Counted from the stretch's first letter, positions 2,094 through 51,756 are shown. The stretch: DNA of 53,844 nucleotides from a virus (IMGVR_UViG_3300032092_000043:1-53844), one strand, 5' to 3'. Program-made: numbers and translations. The notes: a model not told the origin generated them from the letters alone.

Positions 2094-2103
2094 GGAGAAC
2101 GAC

Positions 2104-3417: not shown

Positions 3418-3422
3418 AAACG

Positions 3423-3448
3423 AGTGGGGGCTTCGGCCCCTGCTTTTT
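3423..3448 (+). terminator. Rho-independent terminator
   Basis: GGGGC-TTCG-GCCCC hairpin with T-tract. Confidence 0.88.
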
Positions 3449-3462
3449 ATTAAGGGAACAAA

Positions 3463-4547: not shown

Positions 4548-4549
4548 TT

Positions 4550-4804: not shown

Positions 4805-4805
4805 C

Positions 4806-5867: not shown

Positions 5868-5870
5868 TTG

Positions 5871-6233
5871 ATGGCCATTTTTCTGGACACCCTTGGATAC
5901 TCTGACATTGCAATTGCGATATGCGACCGCTGCAAGATGAAGCGCCCGCACGCCGTGATGCGCAATGATCCGAACTTCCCCGGTCTCCGCGTCTGCAACG
6001 AAGGCTGTGCAGATGAGCTTGACCCCTACCGTTTACCTGCTCGCAAAACCGAAAGGATAACGATTCGGTTTCCACGTCCTGACCTCCCCCTGAACGCAGG
6101 CGACAACTATTTGGTCAGTGGCGGCATCACTACCGTTGTACAAATTTCGACACAAGGCAACACCCAGACGCCAACCTCAAACGGAAACTTGGACACTATT
6201 GCCCCGAACCCACCAAACAACACGAGCACCTAA
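5871..6233 (+). CDS. Hypothetical protein with CxxC...CxxxC motif
   Basis: ICDRC and VCNEGC. Confidence 0.6.
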   Translation: MAIFLDTLGYSDIAIAICDRCKMKRPHAVMRNDPNFPGLRVCNEGCADELDPYRLPARKTERITIRFPRPDLPLNAGDNYLVSGGITTVVQISTQGNTQTPTSNGNLDTIAPNPPNNTST

Positions 6234-8437
6234 TGTCAGCACAAGTAACCATACTCCAACTGCCAGCCGCAGGTGCTATCACAGGCACTGAGGCGGTTCC
6301 TATTGTTCAAAATGGCGTCACGGTGCAGACGACCACGGCGGCGATCTCCGCATCTCCGTCGCAACCCTACACCTACCTGACCGTCACCCAAACACCTCAG
6401 TTAGCCAACAGCCGCTACGTTGGCGCGACCAACGGCTTGACGATCACTGACGGTGGTGCTCAGGGCGTGTTCAATATAACGACCACAGGCGCTCTTTTGT
6501 CGTTAGTGAACTCTGGTACTGGGTTTCAGGTAAAAACGTCTTCTACGGCCATTACAGGCCGCTCTATTGCCGTTTCTGGCGTTGGGTTGTCAATTTCCAA
6601 TGGAAGCGGCGTTTCTGGCGACCCTACAATCACTTTAGCTGGCCAAGTCCTGAATCTGGCTAACCTGAGCGCCAACGGCCTGATGGTGATCACCTCGGCT
6701 GGTGCGTTGTCGGCCACGTCAATCCTGAACGTGGTTGACCAGACCGCTGTGTTCAATGCGGACGGCACGACTGGCAACCCGACCATTGGTTTGGCGTCAA
6801 ACCCCATCATCCCCGGCACTGGGTCAATCTTTATCCCCGTGGGAACCACTGGTCAGAGGTCTTCTGGTGTAAACGGGCAGATTCGTTACAACAGCACCGA
6901 CGGAGCCTACGAGGGCTATTCTGCGGGCGCATGGCGTCAATTCTCGCTGTCTGGTGGCGTCACCTTGGTCAACACTGGAACGGGCCTCACAGGCGGTCCT
7001 ATTACGGGCGCGGGCACGATTTCCATTGACGTCACCGCCGTGACCGCTGGCTCTTATGGGTCTTCAACTCAGGTAGGAACTTTCACTGTCAACGCCCAAG
7101 GTCAACTGACTGCGGCTGCCAACGTGACAATCACCCCTGCCGCCATTGGCGCAGTGTCGTCTGTATCTGGAACCGCAAACGAAATAACCGCAACGGGAAC
7201 CACCACAGTCGTTATTTCGCTGCCTGCTGCTTTGACCTTTACTGGCAAGACGGTGACGGGTGGCACGTTCTTACTGCCAATCATTTCCTCGATATCAAAT
7301 AGCGGCACGATCACCATTCCGTCAGGAACCGACACGCTGGTTGCCCGCAACACTACCGACACGTTGACCAACAAGTCAATCAGTGGCACAGGCAACACGC
7401 TAACCAACATTGGCAATGCTTCGCTGACCAACAGCACGATCTCTGGCGTTTCGCTTGGGTCAAACCTGTTCAGCTTGACGATTGGTACTGGCCTTACTGG
7501 CACGAGCTACAACGGCTCTGCTGCGGTCACTGTGGCAATTGATTCAACCGTGGTGACCTTGACAGGCACGCAGACGCTGACAAACAAAACCATCAGCGGC
7601 GCAAGCAACACGCTTTCCAATATTGGTAACGCCTCGCTGACAAACAGCTCTGTGACCGTTGGAACGACTGCAATTTCGCTTGGCAGCAGCTCGCTGACGC
7701 TTGGTGGCCTGACTTCGGTTGCGGTCACTCAGGACCCAACGACGGCCCTTCAGCTTGCCACCAAGCAGTATGTGGACACCACCGTTGCGGTCGGTTTGAC
7801 TTTTCACCAGCCTGTGCAGGCGGCAACAACCACGACGCTTGCTACGACGACAGGTGGCACGGTCACTTACAACAACGGCACGGCTGGCGTCGGGGCAACC
7901 CTCACATTCTCCGTGGCGCTGACTGTCCTTGACGGTTACACGCTGGCCAACACAAACCGCGTTCTGATCAAGGACGAGGCCAACCAAGCTCACAACGGCG
8001 TCTATACATGGGCCACTGGTGGCACGGTATTGACCCGCGCAACGGATGCTGACACTTACGGCAGCGGAACCAACCAATTTAGCCAGAACGACTACTTCTT
8101 TGTCCAGAACGGAACTGTCAACAAAGGCACTTCTTATGTGGTGACAACTGCTGGAGTTATCACGTTTGGCACAACGGCAATCACGTTTGCTGAATTTAGC
8201 TCGTCTCAGGTTTACACAGGTACATCGCCAATCGTTATTACTGGCACGGTCATCTCTTTGACCACCGTTCCTGTTAACCTTGGTGGTACAAATCTGACTA
8301 GCTACACCATTGGCGATACGCTTTATGCAAGTGGCGCAACAACATTGTCTAAACTACCACTTGGTACGCAGGGTTTTGTGCTGACAGCGGGCGCAACTGG
8401 GCCTGTGTGGTCTGGCATCTCGGGCGGGACTTTCTAA
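6233..8437 (+). CDS. Tail fibre-like protein (proximal)
   Basis: T/G/S-rich; TLTNKTI and NIGNASLTNS repeats; ATKQYVD motif; ends GGTF. Confidence 0.75.
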   Translation: MSAQVTILQLPAAGAITGTEAVPIVQNGVTVQTTTAAISASPSQPYTYLTVTQTPQLANSRYVGATNGLTITDGGAQGVFNITTTGALLSLVNSGTGFQVKTSSTAITGRSIAVSGVGLSISNGSGVSGDPTITLAGQVLNLANLSANGLMVITSAGALSATSILNVVDQTAVFNADGTTGNPTIGLASNPIIPGTGSIFIPVGTTGQRSSGVNGQIRYNSTDGAYEGYSAGAWRQFSLSGGVTLVNTGTGLTGGPITGAGTISIDVTAVTAGSYGSSTQVGTFTVNAQGQLTAAANVTITPAAIGAVSSVSGTANEITATGTTTVVISLPAALTFTGKTVTGGTFLLPIISSISNSGTITIPSGTDTLVARNTTDTLTNKSISGTGNTLTNIGNASLTNSTISGVSLGSNLFSLTIGTGLTGTSYNGSAAVTVAIDSTVVTLTGTQTLTNKTISGASNTLSNIGNASLTNSSVTVGTTAISLGSSSLTLGGLTSVAVTQDPTTALQLATKQYVDTTVAVGLTFHQPVQAATTTTLATTTGGTVTYNNGTAGVGATLTFSVALTVLDGYTLANTNRVLIKDEANQAHNGVYTWATGGTVLTRATDADTYGSGTNQFSQNDYFFVQNGTVNKGTSYVVTTAGVITFGTTAITFAEFSSSQVYTGTSPIVITGTVISLTTVPVNLGGTNLTSYTIGDTLYASGATTLSKLPLGTQGFVLTAGATGPVWSGISGGTF

Positions 8438-19255: not shown

Positions 19256-22200
19256 ATGGGTTTTGTTTCTGACGTTGTTAGCGGGATTGGCAATGCCGTC
19301 GTTGGCGTAGTCACTGGTGTTGTTGACCTTGCTGGTGACGTTATCAAAGGCGTAGGCGATGCTGTTACTGGCGTTTTAAAAATAGTTGAAAATACTGTCA
19401 CGGGCATTCTTAAAGACCCGCTTCCAACCCTCTTGCAAATTGGCGGCGCAATGGTGGGCATTCCGCCATATGTGACGGCTGCTGTGATTACAGCGTCAAA
19501 AGGTGGAAAGCTTGAAGACATTGCCAAATCTGCTGCTGTTTCTTACATAGCTTCTGAGGCCCTTGCCAGCACCAACATTGGCAAAGAAATTGGCAAATTT
19601 ACCAAGACTTCTGGAAGCGATTTCACCAACTACATGATGGAGAATTACAGCCTTCCAGCAGACGTTGCTGTGTCCGTTGCAAAGGCTGCGACTGCAAGTT
19701 TGAACTCTTCAATTATTGGTGGCTTGAATGCAGCAATCAGCGGCAAGTCAATTACCAGCGGTATGGCAACAGGCTTTACGTCTGGTCTTATTTACTCGTC
19801 AACAAACAGCTATTTTGACTCTTTAAACAAGGACCCAAATTGGGGCTTTAGCAACAAAGCTCTAGACCTAATGAAGGGTTCTGCAAGCACCGTTTTAAAC
19901 ACAATTGTTTCAGGCAAAGGTGACCCCTCACAAGCACTCGGGAACTACATTGCCTACGCCACAATTAACTTGGCTGGAACAACGCTTGCGCAGACTGCAA
20001 AGGATGCCTACAAGGTCTTTACGACTGACACCGAGGCGGCAAAGCTTGCTCAGGACAAGTACGTCACGGCCAAGGCCGAGTACGACACAAAAATCACTGC
20101 TGGAGAAAAGCTGCGCAATGAAATAAACGATGAGGCTAAAGCTTTTGAGACTAAAGTTGCCGATGAATTTACACCGTTCAAAACAAGCTACGACGCAATA
20201 ATTGCAGCAAACGAAGCGGCGGTTAATTCATTCAATTGGGAAAAGTCGCGCTTTGACGAAAACAAGTGGGCTTACGAAAATTACCAAACCAAAATGGCGC
20301 AGGACGGCTATCAAATTTACGACGAGGACGTGGGTAATTATTACAGAATGGTTCCAGTCACGGATAAAGATGGTCAAGTTGAATACCATTTACAGTTTGC
20401 GCCAACCAAGCAGTCATATGCCGACAACGCAAACGCCGCAGCCGTAGTGGCAAATGCCGCTGCGGAAAAAGCGGATTTAACTTCCAAAGAAGCTCAAGCG
20501 CTGTACGACGCCAACAAGGACATGCTTGATACGTTGGGAACAACCAAAACTGCAATTGACGAAAAAATTGCCAAGCTCAATGTCATCAAAAGCGATGTTG
20601 AGGACCCAACCGTTGAAGGCTCTACGGCAGCAGCGTTAAAGGCCGCCTCCACCGCCTATCAAACAAAATACGACGCTTGGTCCAAAACCAAAGACGCCGC
20701 TGACCGCTCTGCTGAGAACTACACCAAGGCCTTGGCTGAAGTGGCCACACGCGACGCAACCATTGACGCATTGAACACTGGGGCAATTACCGTTTCCAGC
20801 AAAGACACAAGCGGCAATTGGCTGTTGTCTAACGGCATGACGCTGACGTCGCAAGGTAAGTTCATGCAGGACGGCGCTCAGGTGTTTACAGCCGCCGCTG
20901 GCATTCCTCAAAAGGTCATGGATTTCAAAGCCTCTGACGGCTCCAATGTTGACTTCAATGAAAACTCTGGCCGTCTGCTCTCAGAGACTGACGTAGAAAA
21001 TATTTGCAGACGTGACTATGGCTTCACGCCAACGGCAGCAGAGATTGAGGCAATTGCTGGCGGAACGTACAACGCGCTTGGCAACGACGACATGACCAAT
21101 TTGGCCAACAAAAAGGCCAGAGAGACCTACTTTGCTGTTGTTGGAAAAGATCCGACCGCGTCTGAGCTTGAGACAATTCGCAAGACGGGCAAGGTAATTG
21201 ATGGTGCGGCTGACGCCGCCATCAACGGTCTAGACTTGCCTGCGGACTATGTCTTCCCTGACATGTCAACGCCAGAAAAAATCTCTCGTGGCCAAGCCTA
21301 CGCCGCAGCAAGGGCAAAGTACGGACCAAAAGCAATTTTTGAGTGGACTGACCCTGACACTTTGGTGACAAAAAAATACACCACAGAAAACAGGGAAGAA
21401 AAAGCTGCACGACTTGCAAAGGCCGCGCAAGATGCGCAGAACCGTATCAACCTCATGCCATCTAACGACGTTGCTGGCGCAGGTCGCGGCTTCTTGGGCG
21501 GCAAGCCCGCTGGAGCTGAAAACATCTACCTTGGCAAGAAAGACAACAATGTCTACGTTGATACTCGCGAATACGACGCATTAGGTAACGTGACTAGCGG
21601 CTCTTTAGGCCTTGCTGACGACAAGACCGCAACCAACGTCCGCGCAACAAGCATTGTTGGGCAGATGATTGCTACGGGCGCACAGGGTTTTGGTGAGCTG
21701 ATGCAAAGCTACGCAAGCGGCGCAGCCCTTGCTTCAGGCGGCGACATGAGCAACGCAACCTACAACTTAGGCAAGGCGCTTGAGACTTGGGGCAAAGACC
21801 GCGACGGCGCGGACGTTGTCAGTCAATCCAAAAACATGGAAAGCGCAATTGAGCGGGCAGGTAAAGAGGGCAACATTTTTACGCAGATTGGCATACTGAC
21901 CAAGGCCGCAAAAGACAACCCTTTGGGCATGATTTCAGCCATGGGCAAAGAAGTCGTGCAAGAAGGCCCGGGGTGGGCCGTCGGTGCTGTAGCTGCCGCA
22001 GGCCTTTTGGCCGTCGGTGGTGGGGTTGCTGCGGCTGCCTTGACCGCTGCTGGCGTGGCCGCCGCCATGGACGGCATTGAGTCGTTTGGTGCAGGTGGTC
22101 GCGAGGCCTACGACGCCTTGAAAAAGGCTAATGTGCCCGAGGACCTCGCTCGCGAAAAAGCAATTGTTAACGGCGCAATTCACGCCGCCGTTACCGCGCC

Positions 22201-25200
22201 AGCCGAATTCCTTGCGGACAAGACTTTGTTCAAAGCCTACCTCAACAGCGTCAGTGGTGGCGTTAAAGAGTATGCAGCTAAGTACGGCTCAACAATTGCC
22301 ACAAACGCGGCGAGTGAGTTTATTGAGGCCGTGCCTCAGAACCTGTCAACTCAACAAATTACCACTGGCAAGATGGACCTCAAGACGGCCACTGCTGGCG
22401 CTTTTTACGAGAGCATGATTGGTGGCGGAACAGCCACCTTGGTGCTTGGCCCAGCAGCCATCAACGACGCAGTAATAGTTGCAAAAGATTACGCTGGTAA
22501 CAACGTAACCCTTAAAGAGTTCATGGACGGCACTCGTGACGTCAATCTAAACACCTTGGATTCCTCTGCAACCATTGGAACCTCAAACAACGGCGGCACA
22601 GTGACGCTTGGCGCATTGACTGCTGTCGGCACGGACATTGGTCTTTCTAACACCGAGCTAAAGACCTTCCTGCCAGCCAGCGTAACCGATTACAGCTCTG
22701 TGGTTTACAAATCGGCTGACGGCACTGCGGTGACCCTTGGCAACATCGACTCCATTGTCAAGAAAAACCCAACGCTGGACTTTACGACCGTGCTGGACAC
22801 CGTCTACACCACCAGCGCGGCAGACTTTAAGGTCGTCTTTAGCCCAACCGTTTTGAACGGCACAGCAGACCTCAAGCCTGCAACCGATTACGAAACAACG
22901 GCCAAGGCCGCAGGCTTTCCAAGCTACGCCGTTTACCAGCAGTACGGTGGCGACATATCGGCCTACAACAACGCTCAGAACACTAACTTGGCTACTGCGG
23001 CTGGCTTCCCTGATTACGCTGCGTACACTAAATTCAATGGCGATTTGGCTGCTTACACGGCGTCAAAGACAACACCACCCGTCGTAACCCCTCCCGTTGT
23101 TACACCCCCAGTTGTCACGCCTCCTGTCGTTACTCCGCCTGTTGTGACCCCTCCAGTGGTTACACCCCCCGTAGTGACGCCGCCTGTAGTTACGCCGCCC
23201 GTGGTCACGCCCCCTGTGGTAACGCCTCCAGTTGTAACTCCACCCGTTGTAACGCCGCCTGCAACCGACGTGACAATGGACGCCGTTACCAAGGCCATCA
23301 ATGACGCAATTGCTGGCATTCAGTTGCCCGCAGGCGTCAGCATGGACTCTGTGGTCACGGCCATCAAGAATTTTGCCGCTCAGAACCCAACGCTCAATGC
23401 TGCTGACGTAACGACGGCAATTGCTGCATACATGAAGAGCAACCCGCCAGTCAGCATGGCTGACGTGAGTACGGCGATGGCCACGGCCACAAAAGGCTTG
23501 GCCACAAAGGCTGACATTGCCACAGCAATTGCGGGCATCAAGTTGCCAGCAGGTATCACTACCGCTGACGTCACGTCTGCCATTGAAACTTACATGTCCA
23601 AGAACGCTGGTCTTAGCGCCAAGGACGTGACGGCTGCTGTCAAGACCTACATGGACAACAACCCCGGCCTTGCGGCTGCGGACATCAAGGCCACAGTTGA
23701 AGCGGCAACCAAAGACTTTGCAACTAAGAAAGACATTGAAACCGCGATTGCTGGTATCAAGTTTCCTACAGGAATTACGGCGGCTGACGTCTCTGCTCAA
23801 ATCACGGCAGCTCTTAAAGCAAATCCCAACTTGACTGCGGCGGACGTCACCAAGGCGATCACGACGTACATGCAGAACAACCCCGGCGTGTCGGCTGCGG
23901 ATGTTTCAACTGCAATTAACGCAGCAACTAAAGATTTGGTCACCAACGCATCAATGACAACGGCATTGGCTGGCGTTACTGCTGACGTTAAAACCAAGTT
24001 TGATGGCCTTACTCAAGGTCAAAAAGATATTGTTGCTGCTCAGGTAAAAATGGGCACGGACCTTAACACGGCCATCACCAACGCAGCCGCGCAAACTGCA
24101 ACTCAAATTGCAGGCGTCAAAACCGACATCAGTAATTTGTCCGCTGACGTCAAGATTAAATTTGATGGTCTCACTCAGGGCCAGAAAGACATCGTTGATG
24201 CACAAGTCAAGATGGGTGTCGACATCAACAAAGCAATTGATAACGCGACCAAGCAGACGAGTGAGCAGATCACCAACGTCAGGACCGACCTGACAAGAGA
24301 CATCAAAGACGTTCAAACGCAGTTCAACACTCGCGTAGACGAGCTGGTGCTGCAAGGTAAAACGTACCAAGAAGCCACGCAAGAGGCTTTGAAAGAGCTT
24401 GGCACTGGCGTAAGTGGTTTGCAGACCAGCGTTACTGATATACAAGAAAAAGCAAAACAAGCCGCAAAAGTCGAAGCTGCAAAAACCAAACAGGCCAACG
24501 TTAACAGTGGACTGAGCAGGGCCATGTCGTTGATTGCGCCAACCCTTGGGGCTGGCTTAGTGGACACCTCAAGCCCCGGCTTTGCAGATATTGGTTTAAA
24601 AACCACAGGCGAAGCAAAATTTGAAGGGCCGCTTGAGCAATACCTCAAGATGGTCAAAGAAGGCGATTACACGCCAAACCCAACCCAGCCAGAAACTCAA
24701 CAACAGAACCAGCAGGTGGCCCAAGTGCAAGACGAACTTTCAACCCCACAGCCTCAACCCCAGCAAGGGTCTGATTATTTCAACTACGGGCAGCAGACCG
24801 ACATCAATGACTTTCTGGGTGGCGGTCAAACTCCGACGCTTCCGTTTAAAGCTGGTGGCCTTGCGACGCCTTTGTTTGCGGGTGGCGGCACAACCCGCTA
24901 TGGCCACTACGCTGGGGGTGGCTTGAATGTGGTTCACCACTCTGGCAAGCCACGGCTGGACTTCCGCACAGGCAACGCTGTCACGGGACCCGGGGACGGG
25001 CAGTCCGATGACATCCCCGCCATGTTGGCCGATGGGGAGTTTGTTTTCCCTGCTGACGTGGTGGCCGCGCTTGGAAATGGCTCAACCAAGGCTGGAAGCG
25101 ATAAACTCTACGACATGATGCACTCTATTCGGGCGTATCACAGGTCGGCAAAACCAAAAGATTTACCGCCACCCGCAAAAAAATCACCTTTGGATTACCT

Positions 25201-25231
25201 GACAAAAACTGCACGCAAGGCTAGGAGATAA
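19256..25231 (+). CDS. Large internal virion (ejection) protein
   Basis: 1991 aa, Ala-rich helical, hydrophobic stretches, tandem repeats, C-terminal GPGDGQSDDIPAMLADGEFV domain. Confidence 0.7.
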   Translation: MGFVSDVVSGIGNAVVGVVTGVVDLAGDVIKGVGDAVTGVLKIVENTVTGILKDPLPTLLQIGGAMVGIPPYVTAAVITASKGGKLEDIAKSAAVSYIASEALASTNIGKEIGKFTKTSGSDFTNYMMENYSLPADVAVSVAKAATASLNSSIIGGLNAAISGKSITSGMATGFTSGLIYSSTNSYFDSLNKDPNWGFSNKALDLMKGSASTVLNTIVSGKGDPSQALGNYIAYATINLAGTTLAQTAKDAYKVFTTDTEAAKLAQDKYVTAKAEYDTKITAGEKLRNEINDEAKAFETKVADEFTPFKTSYDAIIAANEAAVNSFNWEKSRFDENKWAYENYQTKMAQDGYQIYDEDVGNYYRMVPVTDKDGQVEYHLQFAPTKQSYADNANAAAVVANAAAEKADLTSKEAQALYDANKDMLDTLGTTKTAIDEKIAKLNVIKSDVEDPTVEGSTAAALKAASTAYQTKYDAWSKTKDAADRSAENYTKALAEVATRDATIDALNTGAITVSSKDTSGNWLLSNGMTLTSQGKFMQDGAQVFTAAAGIPQKVMDFKASDGSNVDFNENSGRLLSETDVENICRRDYGFTPTAAEIEAIAGGTYNALGNDDMTNLANKKARETYFAVVGKDPTASELETIRKTGKVIDGAADAAINGLDLPADYVFPDMSTPEKISRGQAYAAARAKYGPKAIFEWTDPDTLVTKKYTTENREEKAARLAKAAQDAQNRINLMPSNDVAGAGRGFLGGKPAGAENIYLGKKDNNVYVDTREYDALGNVTSGSLGLADDKTATNVRATSIVGQMIATGAQGFGELMQSYASGAALASGGDMSNATYNLGKALETWGKDRDGADVVSQSKNMESAIERAGKEGNIFTQIGILTKAAKDNPLGMISAMGKEVVQEGPGWAVGAVAAAGLLAVGGGVAAAALTAAGVAAAMDGIESFGAGGREAYDALKKANVPEDLAREKAIVNGAIHAAVTAPAEFLADKTLFKAYLNSVSGGVKEYAAKYGSTIATNAASEFIEAVPQNLSTQQITTGKMDLKTATAGAFYESMIGGGTATLVLGPAAINDAVIVAKDYAGNNVTLKEFMDGTRDVNLNTLDSSATIGTSNNGGTVTLGALTAVGTDIGLSNTELKTFLPASVTDYSSVVYKSADGTAVTLGNIDSIVKKNPTLDFTTVLDTVYTTSAADFKVVFSPTVLNGTADLKPATDYETTAKAAGFPSYAVYQQYGGDISAYNNAQNTNLATAAGFPDYAAYTKFNGDLAAYTASKTTPPVVTPPVVTPPVVTPPVVTPPVVTPPVVTPPVVTPPVVTPPVVTPPVVTPPVVTPPVVTPPATDVTMDAVTKAINDAIAGIQLPAGVSMDSVVTAIKNFAAQNPTLNAADVTTAIAAYMKSNPPVSMADVSTAMATATKGLATKADIATAIAGIKLPAGITTADVTSAIETYMSKNAGLSAKDVTAAVKTYMDNNPGLAAADIKATVEAATKDFATKKDIETAIAGIKFPTGITAADVSAQITAALKANPNLTAADVTKAITTYMQNNPGVSAADVSTAINAATKDLVTNASMTTALAGVTADVKTKFDGLTQGQKDIVAAQVKMGTDLNTAITNAAAQTATQIAGVKTDISNLSADVKIKFDGLTQGQKDIVDAQVKMGVDINKAIDNATKQTSEQITNVRTDLTRDIKDVQTQFNTRVDELVLQGKTYQEATQEALKELGTGVSGLQTSVTDIQEKAKQAAKVEAAKTKQANVNSGLSRAMSLIAPTLGAGLVDTSSPGFADIGLKTTGEAKFEGPLEQYLKMVKEGDYTPNPTQPETQQQNQQVAQVQDELSTPQPQPQQGSDYFNYGQQTDINDFLGGGQTPTLPFKAGGLATPLFAGGGTTRYGHYAGGGLNVVHHSGKPRLDFRTGNAVTGPGDGQSDDIPAMLADGEFVFPADVVAALGNGSTKAGSDKLYDMMHSIRAYHRSAKPKDLPPPAKKSPLDYLTKTARKARR
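23072..23260 (+). repeat. 12 x TPPVV coding tandem repeat (15-bp unit)
   Basis: Counted directly; identical peptide units with differing codons. Confidence 0.95.
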
Positions 25232-42789: not shown

Positions 42790-43392
42790 ATGCCAGAAAC
42801 CGCCGCAAAGCCATCAAAACGAGCTACAGCAGCCCCAAAGCCCAAAGCTAAGGCCAAGGGAGCTGCCACGCCGCGCAAAGCCCTAGAAGCCCCAAAGAAG
42901 ACAAGCAAGTCAACCTACACCAAGCAGATAGCTGACATCATCTGTATACGGCTATCAGAGGGTGAGAGCTTGAAGGAGATCGTAAGGTCAGAGGGGATGC
43001 CAGATAGGGCGACGGTTTATCGTTGGTTGTTGGAGCAGCCTGTTTTCTGCGACATGTACACACGCGCACGAGAAGAGCAGGCCGACACGCTGGCCGACGA
43101 AATCATTGCAATTGCTGATGAGTCCCCTGCGATCAACGAGTTCCGCGACAAGCACGGCGACGTGATAGACATCAAGATCGACTCTGGATATGTGGCCTAC
43201 CAAAAGCAGCGCATTGAGGCCCGCAAGTGGACGGCCATGAAGCTTAAGCCTAGGAAGTACGGCGACAAGCTCGAGCTGGCTGGCGACCCCAACAACCCCA
43301 TGAAAGTCGAGATCCAGTCCGAGGCTGACACCTACCTTGCGGCCCTCTTAAAGAACATAGAGCTAAATAAGCAGGTCGCCGCGAATGAGTGA
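42790..43392 (+). CDS. terS: Terminase small subunit (Sf6/P22-like)
   Basis: ICIRLSEGESL..I...MP...TVYRW, RAREEQAD, RIEARKW..KL.PRKYG. Confidence 0.88.
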   Translation: MPETAAKPSKRATAAPKPKAKAKGAATPRKALEAPKKTSKSTYTKQIADIICIRLSEGESLKEIVRSEGMPDRATVYRWLLEQPVFCDMYTRAREEQADTLADEIIAIADESPAINEFRDKHGDVIDIKIDSGYVAYQKQRIEARKWTAMKLKPRKYGDKLELAGDPNNPMKVEIQSEADTYLAALLKNIELNKQVAANE

Positions 43393-44803
43393 CATAGCCG
43401 AGATCGTGGCTGACCCAGAGACGCAGAGGCATCTAGCGCTGGCCAGCCCCGAGTATCGGTTAGCGTGGGCATGGCGTATGAGCTGGTTCAAGACCCAGCA
43501 CGTCCATCAGACCCTGCCCCCCGGCGAGTGGTGGTCCATCTGGCTGATGCTGGCTGGCCGTGGCGCTGGCAAGACCCGTACAGCAGCCGAGCAGATCGCG
43601 TGGTGGGCCTATGAGAACCCTAGCACGCGCTGGCTGGTGGCCGCCCCAACGAGCGCTGACGTTAGGGCCACATGCTTTGAGGGCGACAGCGGCCTGATCA
43701 CCGTCATCCCCAAGTCGCTGGTGGCCGACTACAACAAGACCGCGCACGAGCTGCGCCTGACAAATGGCAGCCTGATCAAGGGCATCCCCGCATCGGAGCC
43801 TGAGCGCTTCAGGGGGCCGCAGTTCCACGGTGGCTGGTGCGACGAGCTGGCCGCGTGGGATTACATCCAAGAGGCGTGGGACCAAATTCAATTCGGCATG
43901 CGCCTTGGTAAGCGCACCCGCATGATTTGCACGACCACCCCGCGACCGAAAGACCTGATCATTGAGTTGATGGGCCGCGAGGGCGACGACGTGGTGATGA
44001 CCACCGCCTCGACCTATGCCAACCTTGGCAACCTGTCCGAAAACTTTAGGAAGCAGATCCTTGCCTATGAGGGGACCAAGCTCGGGAGGCAGGAAATCTA
44101 CGCAGAGATCATCGACCCCGAGGAGGGCGGCATCGTCAAGCGCGACATGTTCAAGCTCTGGTCAGCAGGCCAGCCCTTCCCCAAGTTCGAGTACATCTTG
44201 CAAAGTTACGACGTGGCTACCTCAGAGAAGGCCCAGAACGACCCGACGGCCTGCATCACGTTCGGCGTGTTCAAGCCGCAGGACGGCCCCATGTCGGCCA
44301 TGATCATCGACTGTTGGCAGGAGCGCATGATGTACCCTGACCTGCGCCCCAAGGTGATCGAGGAGTACGAGACCGTCTTTGGTGAGGGCAAGGACCGCAA
44401 GCGCGTCGACCTGCTGCTGATCGAGGACAAGAGCGCGGGCATCAGCCTGATACAAGACCTGCAACGCGCCCACCTGCCTGTGAGGGCCTACAACCCCGGG
44501 AGAGCCGACAAGCTCCAACGCCTCAACATTGTGTCCAACATCATCGCCCGTGGCCGTGTGTGGATACCCGAAAGCGACAACCGCAAGGGCTACGTCAAGG
44601 ACTGGGCCGAGGGGTTCGTCAGCCAGATCTGCTCCTTTCCCGAGACCACGCACGACGACCTCGTGGACGCCTGCACGCAGGCCCTGCGCTACCTGCGTGA
44701 CGCTGGGTGGCTTGACATCGACCCGCCGCCTGACGACACATGGGACGAGGACGATTACGCCGACACTGGCCGCACAAGAAAGGTGAACCCCTATGCAGTC
44801 TGA
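43385..44803 (+). CDS. terL: Terminase large subunit
   Basis: Walker A AGRGAGKT, Walker B WCDE, TTTPRP, nuclease SYD, IEDKSAG, HDDLVDA. Confidence 0.95.
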   Translation: MSDIAEIVADPETQRHLALASPEYRLAWAWRMSWFKTQHVHQTLPPGEWWSIWLMLAGRGAGKTRTAAEQIAWWAYENPSTRWLVAAPTSADVRATCFEGDSGLITVIPKSLVADYNKTAHELRLTNGSLIKGIPASEPERFRGPQFHGGWCDELAAWDYIQEAWDQIQFGMRLGKRTRMICTTTPRPKDLIIELMGREGDDVVMTTASTYANLGNLSENFRKQILAYEGTKLGRQEIYAEIIDPEEGGIVKRDMFKLWSAGQPFPKFEYILQSYDVATSEKAQNDPTACITFGVFKPQDGPMSAMIIDCWQERMMYPDLRPKVIEEYETVFGEGKDRKRVDLLLIEDKSAGISLIQDLQRAHLPVRAYNPGRADKLQRLNIVSNIIARGRVWIPESDNRKGYVKDWAEGFVSQICSFPETTHDDLVDACTQALRYLRDAGWLDIDPPPDDTWDEDDYADTGRTRKVNPYAV

Positions 44804-44975
44804 CCAACCCGCCAAGATAGAGATGTGCGCCAACCGCTTTGAGTTGATAAGCTCATGGGGTGAGCCTGTCGACAAGGCGTGGGCGCGTGACATGTTCGAG
44901 CGCTGGCTAAATCAACGGGTGGACTTGACAGATGCCAGCGTTTATGATGACTTAATTCCAGCAAAAGGTAAATAA
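44793..44975 (+). CDS. Small hypothetical protein
   Basis: 60 aa ORF filling gap between terL and next gene. Confidence 0.4.
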   Translation: MQSDQPAKIEMCANRFELISSWGEPVDKAWARDMFERWLNQRVDLTDASVYDDLIPAKGK

Positions 44976-44977
44976 GC

Positions 44978-47900
44978 ATGCCCAGCTACATAAATTCCAT
45001 CAAGCCGATTAAGCAAATTGATTTACCAAAGCTAAAGCTAATTGAAACCGATTCGGTTCCAAAGAAGAGCCAGTCCCTCCGAGAGTGGGCCATGGCTGGT
45101 GGTGGCGTCCCTGAATCGCACAAGGACCGGGCCGACGTCTGGCACAAGAAGGCGCACAACTACGCCAAGGGCGGCGCGGTCAATATGCAAAAGGGCGGCA
45201 AGATGGGTGTGGGCATGAAGATTGCCGACGTTGTAGCCGACGCCAGCAAGCAGGCTGACGAGATCCTTGCAGCCAAGAAGGCTGGCAAGCTGGACGATGC
45301 CATGAAGTCCAAGCAAGCGCCCATGACGACGCCCCAAGGCACTGGCCTGCCGTTGATGCCCCGCACCCAAGGCATGTACACCCAAGGCGTCAAGCAAGAG
45401 GACCTGCCCCGCATGACCAAGGTGGATAAGGCCCGCGCCGAGGGTAAGTCGCCTGCATACACCGAGCGCATGCAGGACCTGCTCGACAGCCCCACCGCCC
45501 GCAAGAAGATCGACAAGCTGATCAACAAGGGCAAAGACCTGAACATGACCGAGTGGTACGGCACTGAGCCTTTGCGTCAGGTGGCCATGGACTTGGGCCT
45601 GTCGCCCGAGAAATACAAAGAATTCCTTGCGCAGATGGCCAGTGCCAGTCAGCGCAACCCGGTGGACCAGCAAAACAAGATGGGCAGCTACCTGTGGTAC
45701 TTGAGCCAGACGGACCAGTTGCCCGATGATGCGTTTCTGCTGACCAACAAGATCAAGAAGGACCCGTCGCTCAGGCCCGAGGGCACGGCCATTGAACTGC
45801 CAGAAGGCTACGGCTCGCTGGCGCAGGGTGACATCTTTAAACGTGGCAAGCAGATCGCATCGGGTGACATCATGGGCGCACTGCCCCCAGACAAGAAGCT
45901 GGGCACGTTCTACCGCAACTACCTCGGCAACCTCAAGCCCGTCACGGTGGACGTCAACGCAGTGCGTGGCCCCATCATCGAGCGCGGCGATCCCCGCTGG
46001 CTGTCGTCTAAGCTGGTCGAGAAGGACGACGAGGGCAACGTGATTGCCACCCACTTCCCCCGCAAGGACGTGGCCGAGGGCCGCATGTCGCTGAAGGAGG
46101 CCAAAGAGCGCCCCGGCTTCTGGGAGGCTGCGCCGTCTGGGTCCGAGTACGCAGGCTTTGAGGACCTGTGGCAACGCGGGGCCAAGCGCCACGGCGTTGA
46201 GCCAGCAGAGGCCCAAGCGCTGGGCTGGTATGGCTCTGCTGACGTCACCGCGCTCAAGACCAAGCCTGAGCTGTACATCGACAACCTCGAGCGCATGATC
46301 AAGCGCACCGCCGAGGAGACGGGCCAAAGCCCGCTCAAGGTGATGGAGGAGGTCATCAGGGGCAAGGGCTACCTGTACAAAGAGGGTGGAGCGGTCCAGC
46401 ACTTTGATGGTGGCGGTATGGCAGCCGCAGACTTCGTTGGGGCAGAAGACGACGGCGGCAGCCTTGACAAGGCCAAGCTGATGACCAAGATCCTTGCGGA
46501 CATGGCCAAGAAGCAGGGAAGCCAAGAGGTGGACAGCTTAAAAAAGCCCCGCGCACTCACGGACCTGCTTAACCGTGGAGTGCTGGCAAACAACCCAATA
46601 AGCGCAGGCGTGGATCTTTTTAACATGGGCCTTGGTGCATTTGGCATGGGCAGCGATAAGCCGTTTCTTGGGTCCGAGCACCTCAAGGGCTTGATGGACA
46701 AATACAACATTACGTCTGGCGAAGAACGCCCAATGATGGAGACCGCGTTGAGCTTTGCAAGCCCCGCAGGTATGGTCAAAGGTGCGGTGAAAGCAACAGA
46801 CGCCGCTAAGAAAGCTCCTGAGTTGGTCAAAAAAGCCTCGGATGCTTTAACTTCAAGTAAGATAATTCCTCTGGCCACAGAGGCGAAGACTGCGCAAGCA
46901 GGGAAACCAACAGGAGCTGCATATGCAACAAGACAAGAAGGGCCGTTCTTCCGAGTCAGCCCAACAACACTTAACGTCAGTACGGCAAAGAGTCGCGGAA
47001 TTAGAGAAGCGGATGAACTTCAAGGCCAAGCCCCTGTCGGAGGAACAACAGGACAGGTTGGAGGCGAACTTCCGACGCGCATCGCAGATGAAGAGGTGGC
47101 CCGAATAATCGCTGACCCAGTCGCGAACGAGCCACTAAACATTGCAAAAAGATATACTCAAGAAACGCAAGGCACTGACTTTGTCTTGCCTGAAATCCCC
47201 GAGAGTTCCTTAGTTAAGCAGTCGGCCATTGGCCGCACGCACCAAATCGCCGTCGAGGGTGCGCCTGAATACAAGACAGCGGTCTTCGATGCTTACGTTA
47301 AGCAGATGCCCGAAGTGCTTGAGCAGGCAGGAGCTAAGAACTACGACGACCTTATGGAGAAGGCTTACCGCCAACTTGCAAAGGAAACCGACGCGCAGTT
47401 CCAAGCACTGCCCTACAACTTCTCGTATCACCGCGCTGGTGAGGGCAACTACAACTCCAGCAAGGAGATGGCCGCCGACGTGCATGGCAACAAGCACCTG
47501 TACGTCTTTCAAGGCGGCGACCCCCACGACTTCCTGAACCGCGTTGACCCAAACACTGGCTTAAACGAGAACGAAAAGTTTCGCGCCGTTCACGATTTGC
47601 TTGGCCACGCCATCTACGGTAACCAATTTGGACCAAAGGGCGAAGAGACCGCGTGGGCCATCCACAGCCAGATGTACAGCCCGCTTGCTCGTTTGGCCAT
47701 GACGGCTGAGACTCGCGGCCAAAACTCAATGGTCAACTACAGCCCACTAAACGCAAACCTCAAGGCTGAGATTGCCAAGTACGACAGTATGGCCGACGAG
47801 GCACGCAGAAGGGGCGACAAGGCCCTTTTAGGCGAGATTAACGCAGCCAAGCGCCAAGCGTACTCAGGGTTCCAATATGCGCCCCAGAAGGCTGTATTGT

Positions 47901-48454
47901 TGCCCCCCGAGTTCTTGAGTCCCCAATACGCTGGCGGCATGCCCTCGTACCTTGCGGCAGCAAACCGACCCACAAAGGGAACCGAAACCCAATCGGTTTT
48001 AACGCACTTTAGCAACGACCCCAATTTGCAGTTCACTGATCCACGCAGGTATGGCAGCGGCATCAAGGGGGCGGAGGGTGAGCGCCTGCGCGAGTACCCC
48101 GGCGCAGTACGCGACCGCTCGTACTTCTACCTCGGGGAGCCGAGTATGGTCACGCCCGAACCCGGCCTCGGTGCAAATCGTTACCGTGGCGAGTCGTCCA
48201 GCCTGTACGACATCACGCAAGACCCCTTGAACTTTCGCGCCCTTGCGCGAGAGTCTAATCGCGTACCGTACACCGCCAAGTACAACCAAGGCGTGACCTA
48301 CCCATTGCAAGAAGCCAACGACATGGAGCGTTTGGTCAAAGAGTATGGCTATGAAGGGATGGCCAATCCAAAGGCTTCCAAACCAATGGCCATCATGTTC
48401 AAAGAGACACCAGTCCAACGCCAAAAGCGCGGCGGACTTTCATCGATAAAGTGA
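44978..48454 (+). CDS. Multidomain (polyvalent-like) protein with GG-motif linkers
   Basis: Three globular regions (VTVDVNAVR..QALGW; FRAVHDLLGH..ETRGQNS; THFS..YFY..GYEG) with xxxGG motifs at the N-terminus, after domain 1 and at the C-terminus. Confidence 0.7.
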   Translation: MPSYINSIKPIKQIDLPKLKLIETDSVPKKSQSLREWAMAGGGVPESHKDRADVWHKKAHNYAKGGAVNMQKGGKMGVGMKIADVVADASKQADEILAAKKAGKLDDAMKSKQAPMTTPQGTGLPLMPRTQGMYTQGVKQEDLPRMTKVDKARAEGKSPAYTERMQDLLDSPTARKKIDKLINKGKDLNMTEWYGTEPLRQVAMDLGLSPEKYKEFLAQMASASQRNPVDQQNKMGSYLWYLSQTDQLPDDAFLLTNKIKKDPSLRPEGTAIELPEGYGSLAQGDIFKRGKQIASGDIMGALPPDKKLGTFYRNYLGNLKPVTVDVNAVRGPIIERGDPRWLSSKLVEKDDEGNVIATHFPRKDVAEGRMSLKEAKERPGFWEAAPSGSEYAGFEDLWQRGAKRHGVEPAEAQALGWYGSADVTALKTKPELYIDNLERMIKRTAEETGQSPLKVMEEVIRGKGYLYKEGGAVQHFDGGGMAAADFVGAEDDGGSLDKAKLMTKILADMAKKQGSQEVDSLKKPRALTDLLNRGVLANNPISAGVDLFNMGLGAFGMGSDKPFLGSEHLKGLMDKYNITSGEERPMMETALSFASPAGMVKGAVKATDAAKKAPELVKKASDALTSSKIIPLATEAKTAQAGKPTGAAYATRQEGPFFRVSPTTLNVSTAKSRGIREADELQGQAPVGGTTGQVGGELPTRIADEEVARIIADPVANEPLNIAKRYTQETQGTDFVLPEIPESSLVKQSAIGRTHQIAVEGAPEYKTAVFDAYVKQMPEVLEQAGAKNYDDLMEKAYRQLAKETDAQFQALPYNFSYHRAGEGNYNSSKEMAADVHGNKHLYVFQGGDPHDFLNRVDPNTGLNENEKFRAVHDLLGHAIYGNQFGPKGEETAWAIHSQMYSPLARLAMTAETRGQNSMVNYSPLNANLKAEIAKYDSMADEARRRGDKALLGEINAAKRQAYSGFQYAPQKAVLLPPEFLSPQYAGGMPSYLAAANRPTKGTETQSVLTHFSNDPNLQFTDPRRYGSGIKGAEGERLREYPGAVRDRSYFYLGEPSMVTPEPGLGANRYRGESSSLYDITQDPLNFRALARESNRVPYTAKYNQGVTYPLQEANDMERLVKEYGYEGMANPKASKPMAIMFKETPVQRQKRGGLSSIK

Positions 48455-48461
48455 GCACCCC

Positions 48462-51014
48462 ATGGCAACCCAATTCCCAATAGACCCAGAATTCAACCGC
48501 TTTGTTGGCGGCAACCCTGACCAAGACACTGAAGCTGGGGGCGAAGAGGAGGCGCAGGTTGTTGACATGCCTGACCTAGTCAACTCCGAGCTGGAAGAGC
48601 TGCCCGACGGCAGCGTGGTTGTCACCATGGACACCAAGGGGCCGATGGAGGACGAGGACTTCTACCAAAACTTGGCTGACAGCGACCTGATTCAGGACTA
48701 CGACCTGAGCGCCATGGCCCTGCGCTACATCGAGCTGGTCGAGAAGGATAAGGACGCACGCAAGCAGCGCGACAAACAGTACGAAGAGGGCATCAAGCGC
48801 ACGGGCATGGGCAATGACGCCCCCGGGGGTGCGAACTTCAACGGCGCATCCAAGGTCGTTCACCCCGTAATGGCTGAGACTTGCATCGACTTTGCAGCCC
48901 GCGCCATCAAAGAGATGTTCCCACCCGACGGCCCGACCAAAACCAAGATCTTGGGCGACGTCACGCAGGACAAAACCGACATTGCCGAGCGCAAGCGCGA
49001 TTACATGAACTGGCAGTTGACCGAGCAGATTGAGGAATTCCGCGACGAGCAAGAGCAAATGCTGACCCAGCTCCCACTTGGTGGCTCACAGTACATGAAG
49101 CTCTGGTACGACGAGAAGAAGCGCCGCCCCTGCGCACAGTTTCTACCCATCGACAACGTGCTTTTGCCCTACGCGGCAGGCAACTTCTACACCGCCGAGC
49201 GTTTCACCGAGGTTGACGATATCTCTGACTGGGATTACAAGCGCCGCGTGAACTCTGGCATGTACCGCGACACCGTAATGTCCCGCGCCACCATGGACCC
49301 AGAGATGACTGGGGCGCAGAAGGCCACAAACAAGGTCGAGGGCAAGTCCCAAAACGACAACGAAGACGCCGTGCGCCGCGTCTACCACATCTACACATGG
49401 CTCGAGCTGGAAGACGACCCCGTCACTAAGGGTGAAATGGCCCCGTACATCCTGATGATCGACGATCTGTCAAGCGAAGTGATTGGCCTGTACCGAAATT
49501 GGGAAGAGGGCGACAACACAATGACCAAATTGGACTGGGTCATCGAGTTCAAGTTCATCCCATGGCGTGGCGCATACGCAGTTGGTCTGCCGCAGCTCAT
49601 TGGAGGCCTCTCAGCGGCCCTCACAGGCTCTTTGCGTGCCTTGCTGGACTCTGCGCACATCAACAACGCTGCAACGCTCCTGAAGCTCAAGGGCGGCAAG
49701 ATCTCTGGCCAGTCCCAAGAGATCGAAGTCACGCAGGTTGTGGAGATTGAAGGCGCTCCCGGCGTGGATGATGTGCGCAAGATCGCCATGCCCATGCCTT
49801 TCAACGGCCCGTCGCCCGTTCTTTTCCAGCTTTTGGGCTGGCTGACCACCGCCGCCAAGGGCGTGGTGACCACCGCAGAGGAAAAGATTGCCGACGTCAA
49901 CAGCAACACCCCAGTTGGCACGACTCAGGCGCTGATCGAGCAGGGTGCAGCGGTTTTCAGCTCTATCCACGCTCGTTTGCACGAGTCTCAGGGCCGCGTG
50001 CTCAAGGTTTTGAGCCGAATTAACCGCTGGTACTTGGATGACATGCAGCGCGGTGAGGTTGTCGAGGATTTGGAGGTCACTCGAGAGGATTTTGCCCGTG
50101 TGACCGACGTGATTCCTGTGTCGGACCCGCACATCTTCTCTGAGACCCAGCGGATGGCGCAGACCCAAGCGGTTATGGCCATCATGAAGGACAACCCAGA
50201 CCTGTTTAACAAGAAAGTGGTGATACAGCGCTTTTTGAAACAGATCAAAGTCCCCGGCATCAACGAAATCATGGTCGACGTGCCCGCTCCAGTGAAGATG
50301 GACGCCGCCAACGAGAACGTAGCCATGGCCATCGGTCAGGCCGCCTACGCTTACCCCGAGCAGGACCACCTTGGCCACATTCAAGCGCACTTGGACTTTG
50401 CAAAGAGTCCGATTTTTGGTGGTAACCCCATCATTGCGCCAGCCTACTTGCCCAAGTCGGTCGAGCACATCAAGCAGCACATCGTTTTGTGGTACTTAAA
50501 CCGCATGACTGGCTACGTCCAAAAGGCCATGGGCGAGAAGCTCGAGGACTACGAGTTGCAAAAGGACCCCAAGGCCGTCGACAAGCTGTTTGCGCTGGCA
50601 TCGCAGCACGTCGAGCTGGACGCGGACCAAACGCTCAAGGGCATCTTGCCTGTGATCGAGCAACTGATGCAGGGCCTGCAAAAGTTCAAGCCGCAGCCAC
50701 AGATGACGCCAGACACCAAGGTGCTGCTGGACACCAGCATGGCCGAGACCCAGCGCCGCGCCAAGCGCGACGAGGCAGAGATGGGTCTCAAGGACAAAGC
50801 ACTGGCCGCCAAGATCCAAATGGACATGGCCAAGCTGCAACAGGACCAGCAGGAGGCAATGGAAGAGCTGGAAATGCGCTTGGCCATTGCAACCAGCGAC
50901 CAAGAGATGAAAGAACGCATCGAGACAGCCCGCTTAACACGCGATGCGGCAAAGCTCAATTTCGAGCAAACCAAGGCTGTACCAACCCAAGGAGACCGTT
51001 ATGGCAACCAGTGA
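48462..51014 (+). CDS. Portal protein (P22-like podovirus)
   Basis: 850 aa downstream of terL; VVHPVMAE, PVGTTQALIE, IPVSDP; coiled-coil C-terminus. Confidence 0.88.
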   Translation: MATQFPIDPEFNRFVGGNPDQDTEAGGEEEAQVVDMPDLVNSELEELPDGSVVVTMDTKGPMEDEDFYQNLADSDLIQDYDLSAMALRYIELVEKDKDARKQRDKQYEEGIKRTGMGNDAPGGANFNGASKVVHPVMAETCIDFAARAIKEMFPPDGPTKTKILGDVTQDKTDIAERKRDYMNWQLTEQIEEFRDEQEQMLTQLPLGGSQYMKLWYDEKKRRPCAQFLPIDNVLLPYAAGNFYTAERFTEVDDISDWDYKRRVNSGMYRDTVMSRATMDPEMTGAQKATNKVEGKSQNDNEDAVRRVYHIYTWLELEDDPVTKGEMAPYILMIDDLSSEVIGLYRNWEEGDNTMTKLDWVIEFKFIPWRGAYAVGLPQLIGGLSAALTGSLRALLDSAHINNAATLLKLKGGKISGQSQEIEVTQVVEIEGAPGVDDVRKIAMPMPFNGPSPVLFQLLGWLTTAAKGVVTTAEEKIADVNSNTPVGTTQALIEQGAAVFSSIHARLHESQGRVLKVLSRINRWYLDDMQRGEVVEDLEVTREDFARVTDVIPVSDPHIFSETQRMAQTQAVMAIMKDNPDLFNKKVVIQRFLKQIKVPGINEIMVDVPAPVKMDAANENVAMAIGQAAYAYPEQDHLGHIQAHLDFAKSPIFGGNPIIAPAYLPKSVEHIKQHIVLWYLNRMTGYVQKAMGEKLEDYELQKDPKAVDKLFALASQHVELDADQTLKGILPVIEQLMQGLQKFKPQPQMTPDTKVLLDTSMAETQRRAKRDEAEMGLKDKALAAKIQMDMAKLQQDQQEAMEELEMRLAIATSDQEMKERIETARLTRDAAKLNFEQTKAVPTQGDRYGNQ

Positions 51015-51153: not shown

Positions 51154-51332
51154 GAACCCTTTCCGATTTGATTGGTGGAATCAAGGCTAGGCAGGCTGAA
51201 ATAGCCGCGTCCCTCGTTGCTGGTAATGCGACGAACTGGGAGTCTTACGTTCGACTGGTTGGTCACAACGGGGGTCTGCAAGAGGCCCTCGAAATCCTAA
51301 ATAACCTGATGAAGGAAGATGAAGATGAGTAA
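51150..51332 (+). CDS. Small hypothetical head-region protein
   Basis: ATGA-coupled; typical position between portal and GroES. Confidence 0.65.
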   Translation: MRTLSDLIGGIKARQAEIAASLVAGNATNWESYVRLVGHNGGLQEALEILNNLMKEDEDE

Positions 51333-51756
51333 CAACCCGGTAGCTTCTCACGAAGCTGAGATGGCTTGGGCATTTCCGAGCGTAGATCCCGGTGCAAAAC
51401 CTCTTGGTGGACGACTGTTAGTTCAGCTCCGCCGCTCAAAAAAGACGACAACTGCATCTGGAATTATCTTGGTCGAAGAAACCAAGGAAACTGAAAAGTG
51501 GCAAAACATGGTCGCCAAAGTAATCGAGGTTGGACCGCTGGCATTTAAGCATCGTGACACGATGTTGGGCTGGCCCGAAGGATCTTGGTGCGAGGCTGGC
51601 GAATTTATTCGTGTGCCCAAGTGGGGTGGCGATCGTTGGGAGGTCTCGGTTCCCGGCGAGGCCAACGAAGAACGCGCCTTGTTTATGGTCCTGAACGATC
51701 ACGAGGTGATCGCTAAGTTGACTGGTGATCCACTTGCTATGAGGGCATTCCTATGA
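51325..51756 (+). CDS. groES: GroES-like co-chaperonin
   Basis: KPLGGRLLVQ, TASGIIL, AKVIEVGP, LNDHEVIA. Confidence 0.85.
   Translation: MSNNPVASHEAEMAWAFPSVDPGAKPLGGRLLVQLRRSKKTTTASGIILVEETKETEKWQNMVAKVIEVGPLAFKHRDTMLGWPEGSWCEAGEFIRVPKWGGDRWEVSVPGEANEERALFMVLNDHEVIAKLTGDPLAMRAFL

Follow-up and report, generated by a model that had tools for sequence, protein, structure and literature searches.

The gene between TerL and portal

The window analysed in this study, i.e. the whole stretch IMGVR_UViG_3300032092_000043:1-53844, is a 53,844-base complete viral contig with direct terminal repeats, belonging to an uncultured freshwater phage. Between the genes of the large terminase subunit (TerL) and the portal protein it carries a single open reading frame (ORF), which encodes a polyvalent protein and occupies a slot whose content differs among closely related phages. 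This gene and its product are referred to as the cargo gene and the cargo protein, after the role proposed for them below. The portal gene starts eight bases past the stop of the cargo ORF. The features of the locus are listed in Table 1, with positions counted from the first letter of the window. Pieces of the cargo gene identical to the letter were found in contigs from three further runs (X2, X4 and X7). Differences in depth between the cargo gene and its flanks were disregarded, as the depth of contigs is no basis for ranking genes. A blastn search of the sequence against phages gave nothing useful.

A preliminary description, made from the sequence alone, had recognized a polyvalent, modular protein in a context of virion genes, between terminase and portal. 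Both the position and the architecture were borne out, since matches to Terminase_6N and Terminase_6C lie upstream and a match to phrog_1216 downstream, and the protein consists of three folded parts with separate sets of homologues. The three domain ranges that had been proposed correspond to the parts that are folded in the AlphaFold models (amino acids, aa, ~123-469, 704-962 and the beta-rich 1003-1149). All of the quoted motifs were found: WY (aa 193-194), VTVDVNAVR (322-330) and AQALGW (412-417) in domain 1, FRAVHDLLGH (868-877), GEE (888-890) and H896 in domain 2, and THFS (1009-1012), YFY (1049-1051) and GYEG (1124-1127) in domain 3.

Table 1. Features of the cargo gene and of the head and packaging genes discussed in the text.
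Feature	Coordinates	Strand	Basis or remark
Major capsid protein	129-1043	+	Pfam Phage_capsid_4, 5e-10
GG-repeat protein, 454 aa, 13 GGx[VILM], tail KKRGGMAC	2053-3417	+	Two genes after the capsid gene
Small terminase, upstream of TerL	42790-43392		Sf6_terminase
TerL, left flank of the slot	43385-44803	+	Pfam Terminase_6N 2e-27, Terminase_6C 2e-10
Cargo gene, polyvalent protein P0001	44978-48454	+	Single ORF, 1158 aa (ORF list, translation)
N-terminal leader, aa 1-76, ending in YAKGGAVNMQKGG	44978-45205	+	Common to 19/53 related loci
N-module (domain 1), aa ~123-469, mostly helical, DUF7178-like	45344-46384	+	Pfam, AlphaFold
GG linker cluster after the N-module (YKEGGAV, FDGGGMA, DDGGSL)	46376-46465	+	pLDDT <50 at aa 470-500
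Middle segment, aa 486-645	46433-46912	+	Read from sequence; models cover only aa 486-500 and 640-645
C-module, aa 646-1153, one rigid unit	46913-48436	+	AlphaFold2 mean pLDDT 91.8, pTM 0.90 (38 sequences)
Putative metal-site domain, core (domain 2), aa 814-962; FRAVHDxxGH, GEE, H896, ETRGQNS	47417-47863	+	phrog_3170
ART-fold domain (domain 3), aa 1003-1149	47984-48424	+	Foldseek
C-terminal tail KRGGLSSIK	48425-48451	+	[KR]GG tail enrichment
Portal protein, right flank of the slot	48462-51014	+	phrog_1216, 2.7e-13
pLDDT, predicted local distance difference test; pTM, predicted template modelling score; ART, ADP-ribosyltransferase.

Variability of the slot in related phages

The slot was surveyed in the best 80 portal relatives (71-97% identical) out of at least 588 present in viral contigs (IMG/VR), which provided 53 loci with both TerL and portal (numbered with the prefix L). 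The TerL-portal interval of these loci is 1765-6329 nucleotides long and contains one or more ORFs, the cargo ORFs ranging in size from 569 to 2035 aa. Within this set, the leader was identified in 19 loci, the N-module in 7, the C-module in 11 and both modules in 5; none of the three was present in 24. The loci whose portals are at least 90% identical (11 in number) all carry the leader, and the N-module and the C-module are each found in two of them. Pfam analysis of 34 cargo ORFs revealed ART-PolyVal in 13, PcfJ in 12 and LPD23 in 3. Thus, the expectation that this locus holds different domains in related phages was confirmed, both across the 53 loci and among the 11 phages with the most similar portals. 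Among cultured phages the most similar portals are those of Caulobacter phages RW and KcrB (44.6% identity), in which the gap between TerL and portal contains a tRNA only.

Modular architecture of the cargo protein

A search of 1.84 billion representative proteins identified 5014 relatives of the cargo protein at E<=1e-3, and the modules were mapped by placing the best 150 of these on the query. In this set the N-module (aa ~62-485) and the C-module (aa ~646-1153) were each found without the other, at the start, in the middle or at the end of proteins 279 to 2560 residues long, and in either order (C before N in relatives P0008 and P0067). The C-module travels as one unit, in proteins of 375-2560 aa, and in hundreds of other proteins the two modules are found apart from each other. 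Among 25 long relatives, Pfam domains were represented by ART-PolyVal (9 proteins), PcfJ (6), LPD23 (5), Phage_lysozyme2 (3), NUDIX (1) and Amidase_2 (1). Searches of the whole protein against PDB sequences, and searches of NCBIfam and PADLOC, gave nothing useful.

In L049, L060 and L061, three of the related loci, two adjacent genes encode the C-module and the N-module, and each of the C-module genes ends in an RGGL... tail. The proposal that two cargo genes have become fused in the studied phage fits this observation, as well as the separate occurrence and the interchangeable order of the modules.

The modules are preceded by a leader, whose invariant residues in an 18-row alignment are G41, G42, P45, W55, A63, G65 and G66; the leader sequences part ways directly past GGxVxMxxGG. 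AlphaFold confidence for the leader is low to moderate, and the model of the N-terminal half (folded with 23 sequences) is disordered at aa 1-32, 64-122 and 470-500. A complex prediction for leader residues 1-85 and the portal protein gave a score of 0.00, which bears on neither side of the question of their association.

The middle segment connects the two modules, and aa 501-639 lie outside both structure models. Residues 499-623 have counterparts, 38-46% identical, in other cargo proteins (L051 and L052). This segment also contains a hydrophobic, Gly-rich stretch (aa 541-558; 46598-46651, plus strand), and a similar word (ADFIPFVG-like) was observed in alternative N-termini of other cargo proteins.

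The GG motif

The preliminary description had noted pairs of adjacent glycines (GG) at the N-terminus, after domain 1 and at the C-terminus of the protein. This was substantiated, and the motif proved to mark module ends. GG is located at positions 41, 65 and 73 (N-terminus), 470, 478 and 493 (past domain 1), 688 and 695 (in a loop), 846 and 986 (in folded domains) and 1152 (C-terminus). The total is ordinary (13 overlapping pairs compared with 9.9 expected) and it is the placement that is unusual: 7 of the 11 sites fall in segments with pLDDT <50, which make up ~14% of the modelled residues (binomial 2e-4). It should be borne in mind that glycine is commoner in disordered segments anyway.

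The same arrangement was found in homologues. GG occurs within 30 aa past the N-module in 40 of 44 homologues and past the C-module in 84 of 105, compared with 22.7% of random 30-aa windows drawn from the same 150 proteins; for the stricter pattern GGx[VILMA] the respective values are 38 of 44, 65 of 105 and 8.4%. The flanks of the motif are specific: at 907 sites in cargo ORFs we observed a preference for M or K at position -3, V at +3 (3.9-fold) and H at +4 (5.9-fold). Moreover, 39 of the 79 cargo ORFs, and 31 of the 63 tails that are distinct, have [KR]GG within their final 25 residues. The corresponding values are 4.4% for random windows and 48 of 580 for other ORFs. Among the cargo tails listed, a matching tail follows unrelated last modules. 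Breakpoints of blast alignments are found 10 aa or less from GGx[VILM] in 18% of the 953 clusters, which are not independent of one another, and in 8% at random.

The motif is also found in a second type of protein, encoded close to the capsid gene (Table 1). This GG-repeat protein is rich in Gly, Met and Lys, and no match to it was found in Pfam, PHROG or PADLOC. Its homologues, identified in 40 related loci, contain 15-42 GG each, and 38 of the 40 tails listed are GG tails that close with Cys, mostly KKRGGxVxC. Cys-x-Cys tails (such as ...KLCGCHD and ...KSCACDD) were observed after the GG motif in several cargo proteins (L004, L009, L010, L011, L016 and L021).

The N-module

The N-module is modelled mostly with pLDDT values of 73-96 (aa ~121-470), with one dip to 54. 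The family DUF7178 (PF23802) was matched marginally (28.0 bits, with a cut-off of 27) and in part, i.e. across aa 284-330 of the protein and positions 93-140 of the 193-position profile; this match was shared by 4 of the 26 sequences scanned, including the cargo protein itself. In roseophage CRP-212 (gp38, 1203 aa) and in Microcystis phage MJing1, homologues of the N-module adjoin the portal gene. The structural neighbours found in BFVD are parts of polyvalent proteins of uncultured phages, none of them of known function. Many polar residues of the N-module are invariant, and it is therefore probably an enzyme, as judged from its sequence conservation.

Domain 1 had been likened to HhH-GPD glycosylases, a likeness that stays a lead and not a finding. 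The HhH-GPD hidden Markov model (HMM; PF00730) had no match in the genome at E<=10, while matching 14 of 14 control genomes. When a 48-sequence alignment of the N-module was compared with endonuclease III (Nth) using hhalign, VTVDVNAVR was paired with the loop bearing the catalytic Asp of Nth, at a probability of 0.08% (E 0.65, 26 columns); this test is weak because the Nth template had little diversity (87-100% identity), which gives the comparison low power. Foldseek placed MjOgg (3fhf; probability 0.21) and the phage glycinyltransferase PUGT (0.23) low in its list, which contained no match at E<=1e-3. A comparison of the N-module profile with PDB yielded ankyrin-repeat matches to one short stretch only, which were taken as chance similarity boosted by the repeats and were rejected.

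An antisense ORF of 495 aa (45038-46525, minus strand) spans the N-module. It is in the codon-aligned reverse frame of the gene, whose GC content at third codon positions is 0.70. The frame is open in L049 (471 codons) and not in L007 (141) or L012 (259); the ORF is probably an artefact.

The C-module and its two domains

In the model, the C-module comprises a beta hairpin (aa 649-662), a disordered loop (684-695), a helical region (704-809) and domains 2 and 3.

Domain 2 matches phrog_3170, a family of unknown function, with an E-value of 5.2e-14 over aa 824-927, and has 172 short relatives in a search limited to sequences of 111-356 residues. In 64 aligned sequences, N865, F868, R869, H872, D873, H877, G888, E889, E911, T912, G914 and Q915 are invariant and H896 is nearly so. 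The invariance of the His, Asp and Glu residues points to a putative metal site. By tblastn, the domain aligns with parts of the 'large polyvalent protein' of Planktothrix phage Pag-Yong1, of cyanophage proteins annotated as 'lysin', of hypothetical proteins of ~150-kb Mycobacterium phages (Alice, LRRHood and LinStu, among others), and of gp205 of Rhodococcus phage E3, annotated as 'structural protein'. A profile of domain 2 found nothing at E<=10 among PDB sequences, and Pfam analysis of the 64 members gave nothing consistent.

The idea that this domain is a zincin-like protease was not upheld. Its motif is H-D-x-x-x-H (HDLLGH, spacing five) and not HExxH, the MPTase-PolyVal HMM (PF18818) has no match in the genome, and none of the 49 Foldseek matches listed is a peptidase. 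A role as a protease acting in cis on the GG motif is excluded, because GG tails and linkers are equally common in the 61 of 79 cargo ORFs that lack domain 2 (the tail is present in 29 of these, and 49 contain at least three internal motifs). The top Foldseek matches were aromatic amino-acid hydroxylases (E ~1e-2, probability <=0.25), enzymes that have the word H-[ED]-L-L-G-H in common with domain 2; a fold relationship was rejected on account of a root-mean-square deviation of 17-19 Å and a template modelling (TM) score of ~0.1.

For domain 3, the closest structure found by Foldseek was that of the anti-CRISPR protein AcrIF11 (6kyf; probability 1.00, TM on target 0.49), followed by MbcT (6fkg; 0.54 and 0.33), NatT (8qnl; 0.38 and 0.25) and tankyrase TNKS1 (4k4e; 0.25 and 0.23), every E-value of these ART matches being above 1e-3. 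AcrIF11 is described in a preprint (bioRxiv 10.1101/2024.08.26.609590) as an ADP-ribosyltransferase of phage origin whose catalytic residue is an Asp. Of the 30 nearest named clusters in the protein Atlas, 21 have 22-24% ART-PolyVal members (score 0.90, 153 shared features), which is to be read as a lead only. Conservation across 137 relatives is high at H1010 (136), S1012 (132), Y1051 (136), E1061 (135) and D1082 (137). According to the model, the fold of domain 3 is ART-like. The acids E1061 and D1082 are near-invariant, and the GY-x-G residue that aligns with the catalytic Asp of GYDG is variable (see below). The earlier assignment of this domain as ADP-ribosyltransferase-like thus holds for the fold and agrees with the Atlas clusters, while the ART-PolyVal HMM and the acidic residue of GY-x-G did not bear it out (see below). 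Domain 3 without domain 2 was encountered only in 23 short hits, all on contigs of at most ~5 kb and with no Pfam domain; these hits are likely fragments.

Neighbouring genes and further observations

A 60-codon ORF (44793-44975, plus strand) lies between TerL and the cargo gene and overlaps the end of TerL. A GroES/Cpn10-like gene (51319-51756, plus strand; Pfam Cpn10 3.8e-6, phrog_3188) is present amid the head genes, and one is annotated at the equivalent relative position in Caulobacter phage KcrB. An ORF of 1991 codons (19256-25231, plus strand) is the largest gene in this phage.

In seven of the related loci (L006, L013, L015, L040, L057, L067 and L078) the TerL ORF is 2.2-3.2 kb long instead of 1.4 kb, and the TerL annotation of phage KcrB is split around a methyltransferase gene, which suggests elements inserted in TerL.

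Interpretation and alternative readings

The first products of a phage that its host encounters are believed to be polyvalent proteins and, to our knowledge, the route by which varied cargo enters the head is known for very few phages. The best explanation of the whole is that the locus is a swappable cargo cassette coding for an injected, GG-tagged polyvalent protein, and we give this reading a probability of about 0.65. The gene would be one allele of a cassette occupying the TerL-portal slot in a group of uncultured freshwater phages. Its product would consist of a short lineage-specific leader, the N-module, the middle segment and the rigid C-module, in which a new His/Asp/Glu domain, putatively metal-binding, is predicted to pack on a domain of ADP-ribosyltransferase fold. 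The protein would be loaded into the head at assembly and would leave it with the DNA, and its modules may then act on host targets, by NAD+-dependent modification (the ART-fold domain) and metal-dependent hydrolysis (its partner). A conserved peptide, approximately [KR]-x-G-G-x-[VIL], would join and end the modules, most likely as a loading/docking or processing signal rather than as a mere spacer.

Several results weigh against this reading. The slot is dispensable, because phages RW and KcrB have only a tRNA there. By sequence, the modules matched no characterised enzyme family, the matches being DUF7178 and a PHROG of unknown function, and none of the Foldseek matches listed is a convincing structural neighbour of the putative metal-site domain. 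In the case of domain 3, the ART-PolyVal HMM (PF18760) has no match in the genome at E<=10, nor was this family found in the Pfam scans at the same threshold; hhalign comparison with an ART-like set, picked by the word YHG[TS], paired GY-E-G with GYDG over 22 columns at a probability of 22%; and the variable position of GY-x-G is E in 60 of the 137 relatives, S in 30, Q in 16 and K in 9. The pattern [KR]GGxV is absent from the GG sites listed for CRP-212 gp38, the MJing1 protein and E3 gp205, and the GG motif is therefore a trait of the phage group and not of the domains. Finally, the analysis documents the context of the gene, its modularity, the variable slot, the conserved motif and the folds, whereas packaging, injection, enzyme activities and the role of GG are inferred, the first two from the gene position and from the class of proteins described by Iyer et al. 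2017.

The alternatives concern mainly the GG motif. It may represent cleavage sites, so that a polyprotein would be cut at [KR]xGG|xV by a phage or host protease, before or after packaging. The position of GG at module borders in most homologues agrees with such processing, and processing of polyvalent proteins by a built-in peptidase has been proposed by Iyer et al. 2017 (PMC5512222). We nevertheless consider cleavage rather unlikely. The families Peptidase_S78, S49, C39 and MPTase-PolyVal have no match at E<=10 in the whole genome, and peptidase families are absent from the Pfam scan of 34 cargo ORFs. Furthermore, the enrichment of the motif peaks just short of the C-terminal end, so that cleavage there would free only 5-15 residues, the separate GG-repeat protein contains 13 copies, and the motif is kept in the 61 of 79 cargo ORFs lacking domain 2.

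The motif may, on the other hand, have no signal function and consist of flexible spacers or recombination joints left by the shuffling of modules. Disordered Gly-rich linkers are common, the GG total of the cargo protein is near expectation (13 compared with 9.9), the enrichment at breakpoints is modest (18% compared with 8%), and the motif pattern was not seen in cultured phages with the same domains. A plain spacer is nevertheless insufficient, because the flanks are specific (M/K at -3, V at +3, H at +4) and the tail is common to unrelated proteins: [KR]GG is ~11-fold enriched in the last 25 residues (39/79 compared with 4.4%), and the tail recurs on unrelated last modules, among those listed, and on the GG-repeat protein in 38 of the 40 loci listed. 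This explanation is therefore regarded as unlikely.

It is quite improbable that the protein is a structural or assembly part, i.e. a MuF/gp7-like minor head protein at the portal and not an injected effector: N-module homologues adjoin the portal gene in CRP-212 (gp38) and MJing1, and the phage E3 protein with the metal-site domain is annotated as 'structural protein', but the content of the slot is wholly replaced between phages with portals at least 90% identical, the slot is empty in KcrB, the Phage_Mu_F HMM gave no match, and the three folded parts all contain numerous invariant polar residues, which is suggestive of enzymes.

The locus represents a clean natural experiment, in which near-identical packaging genes are combined with interchangeable cargo that has a common leader and tail, both of which are directly testable as loading or cutting signals. 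The analysis also defines two uncharacterised predicted enzyme domains that are common in phage metagenomes, namely the putative metal-site domain and a divergent ART-fold domain tied to it. They are candidates for new counter-defence or host-takeover chemistry.

Comparison with known systems

The cargo protein is a member of the polyvalent class by its context, its modularity and the companion domains of its relatives. The proteins described in the main text of Iyer et al. 2017 (PMC5512222) are likewise large and multi-domain, are encoded beside portal-terminase genes and have shuffled domains, and we found several unrelated domains, a portal-terminase coding context and recombination of domains among relatives in the present case. 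As in that class, relatives of the cargo protein also carry ART-PolyVal, LPD23, lysozyme and NUDIX domains. There are also differences. The commonest hub domain of the class, as described there, is a zincin peptidase, whereas the cargo protein has no zincin, and its own modules match no Pfam family derived from that work; they may nevertheless be among the domains LPD1-LPD40 of Iyer et al. 2017. Neither the leader nor the linkers and tail with GG have a counterpart in the main text of that paper, in which the words 'glycine' and 'linker' do not occur.

Domain 3 shares an ART-like fold, a conserved His in strand 1 and a Tyr in strand 2 with AcrIF11 (6kyf), ART-PolyVal and Tox-ART-HYD2, and its GY-E-G aligns with their GYDG. 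The triad of ART-PolyVal consists of H (strand 1), Y (strand 2) and D (strand 5). Domain 3 differs in the lack of a match to the ART-PolyVal HMM, in its variable acidic position and in being nearly always fused to the putative metal-site domain. A literature search, limited in scope, found nothing on DUF7178, nothing on ART-PolyVal together with phage, and nothing linking encapsulin tags to phage cargo.

The delivery of varied cargo into the head by means of a short signal or anchor has parallels in the capsid targeting sequences of phage T4 and in MuF-fused effectors (see also the introduction of PMC5512222). However, the cargo protein has no MuF domain and the sequence of its leader is different. 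A protease of the T4 type and L/I-x-E sites were not encountered either, although no search aimed at them was made.

A further parallel is provided by the targeting peptides of encapsulins, which bind an HK97-fold shell (NTGGDLGIRK in T. maritima; consensus DGSLGIGSLKG), as described in PMC7925596. Like the cargo tail, these C-terminal peptides combine Gly with two hydrophobic residues and a basic one at the terminus. The tagged cargo of encapsulins is interchangeable, as is the content of the slot described here, and an HK97-fold shell would be the partner here too. The resemblance is one of a short motif only. In the present case the GG motif is also internal and present in many copies, and the spacing of the hydrophobic residues is different (L-S-S-I compared with L-G-I in the encapsulin peptides). 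It is this resemblance of the tail that makes a docking tag attractive. A tentative proposal, which we regard as rather unlikely, is that a tailed phage uses the [KR]-G-G-x-hydrophobic peptide in the manner of encapsulin tags, for loading the capsid. If it were true, enzyme modules tagged at their end or in their linkers would attach to the HK97-fold capsid protein from the inside, a candidate docking partner in this genome being the major capsid protein (Table 1), and would thus be packaged. The TerL-portal slot would then be a plug-in site for tagged cargo, and the GG-repeat protein encoded beside the capsid gene would be a multivalent partner for the same site.

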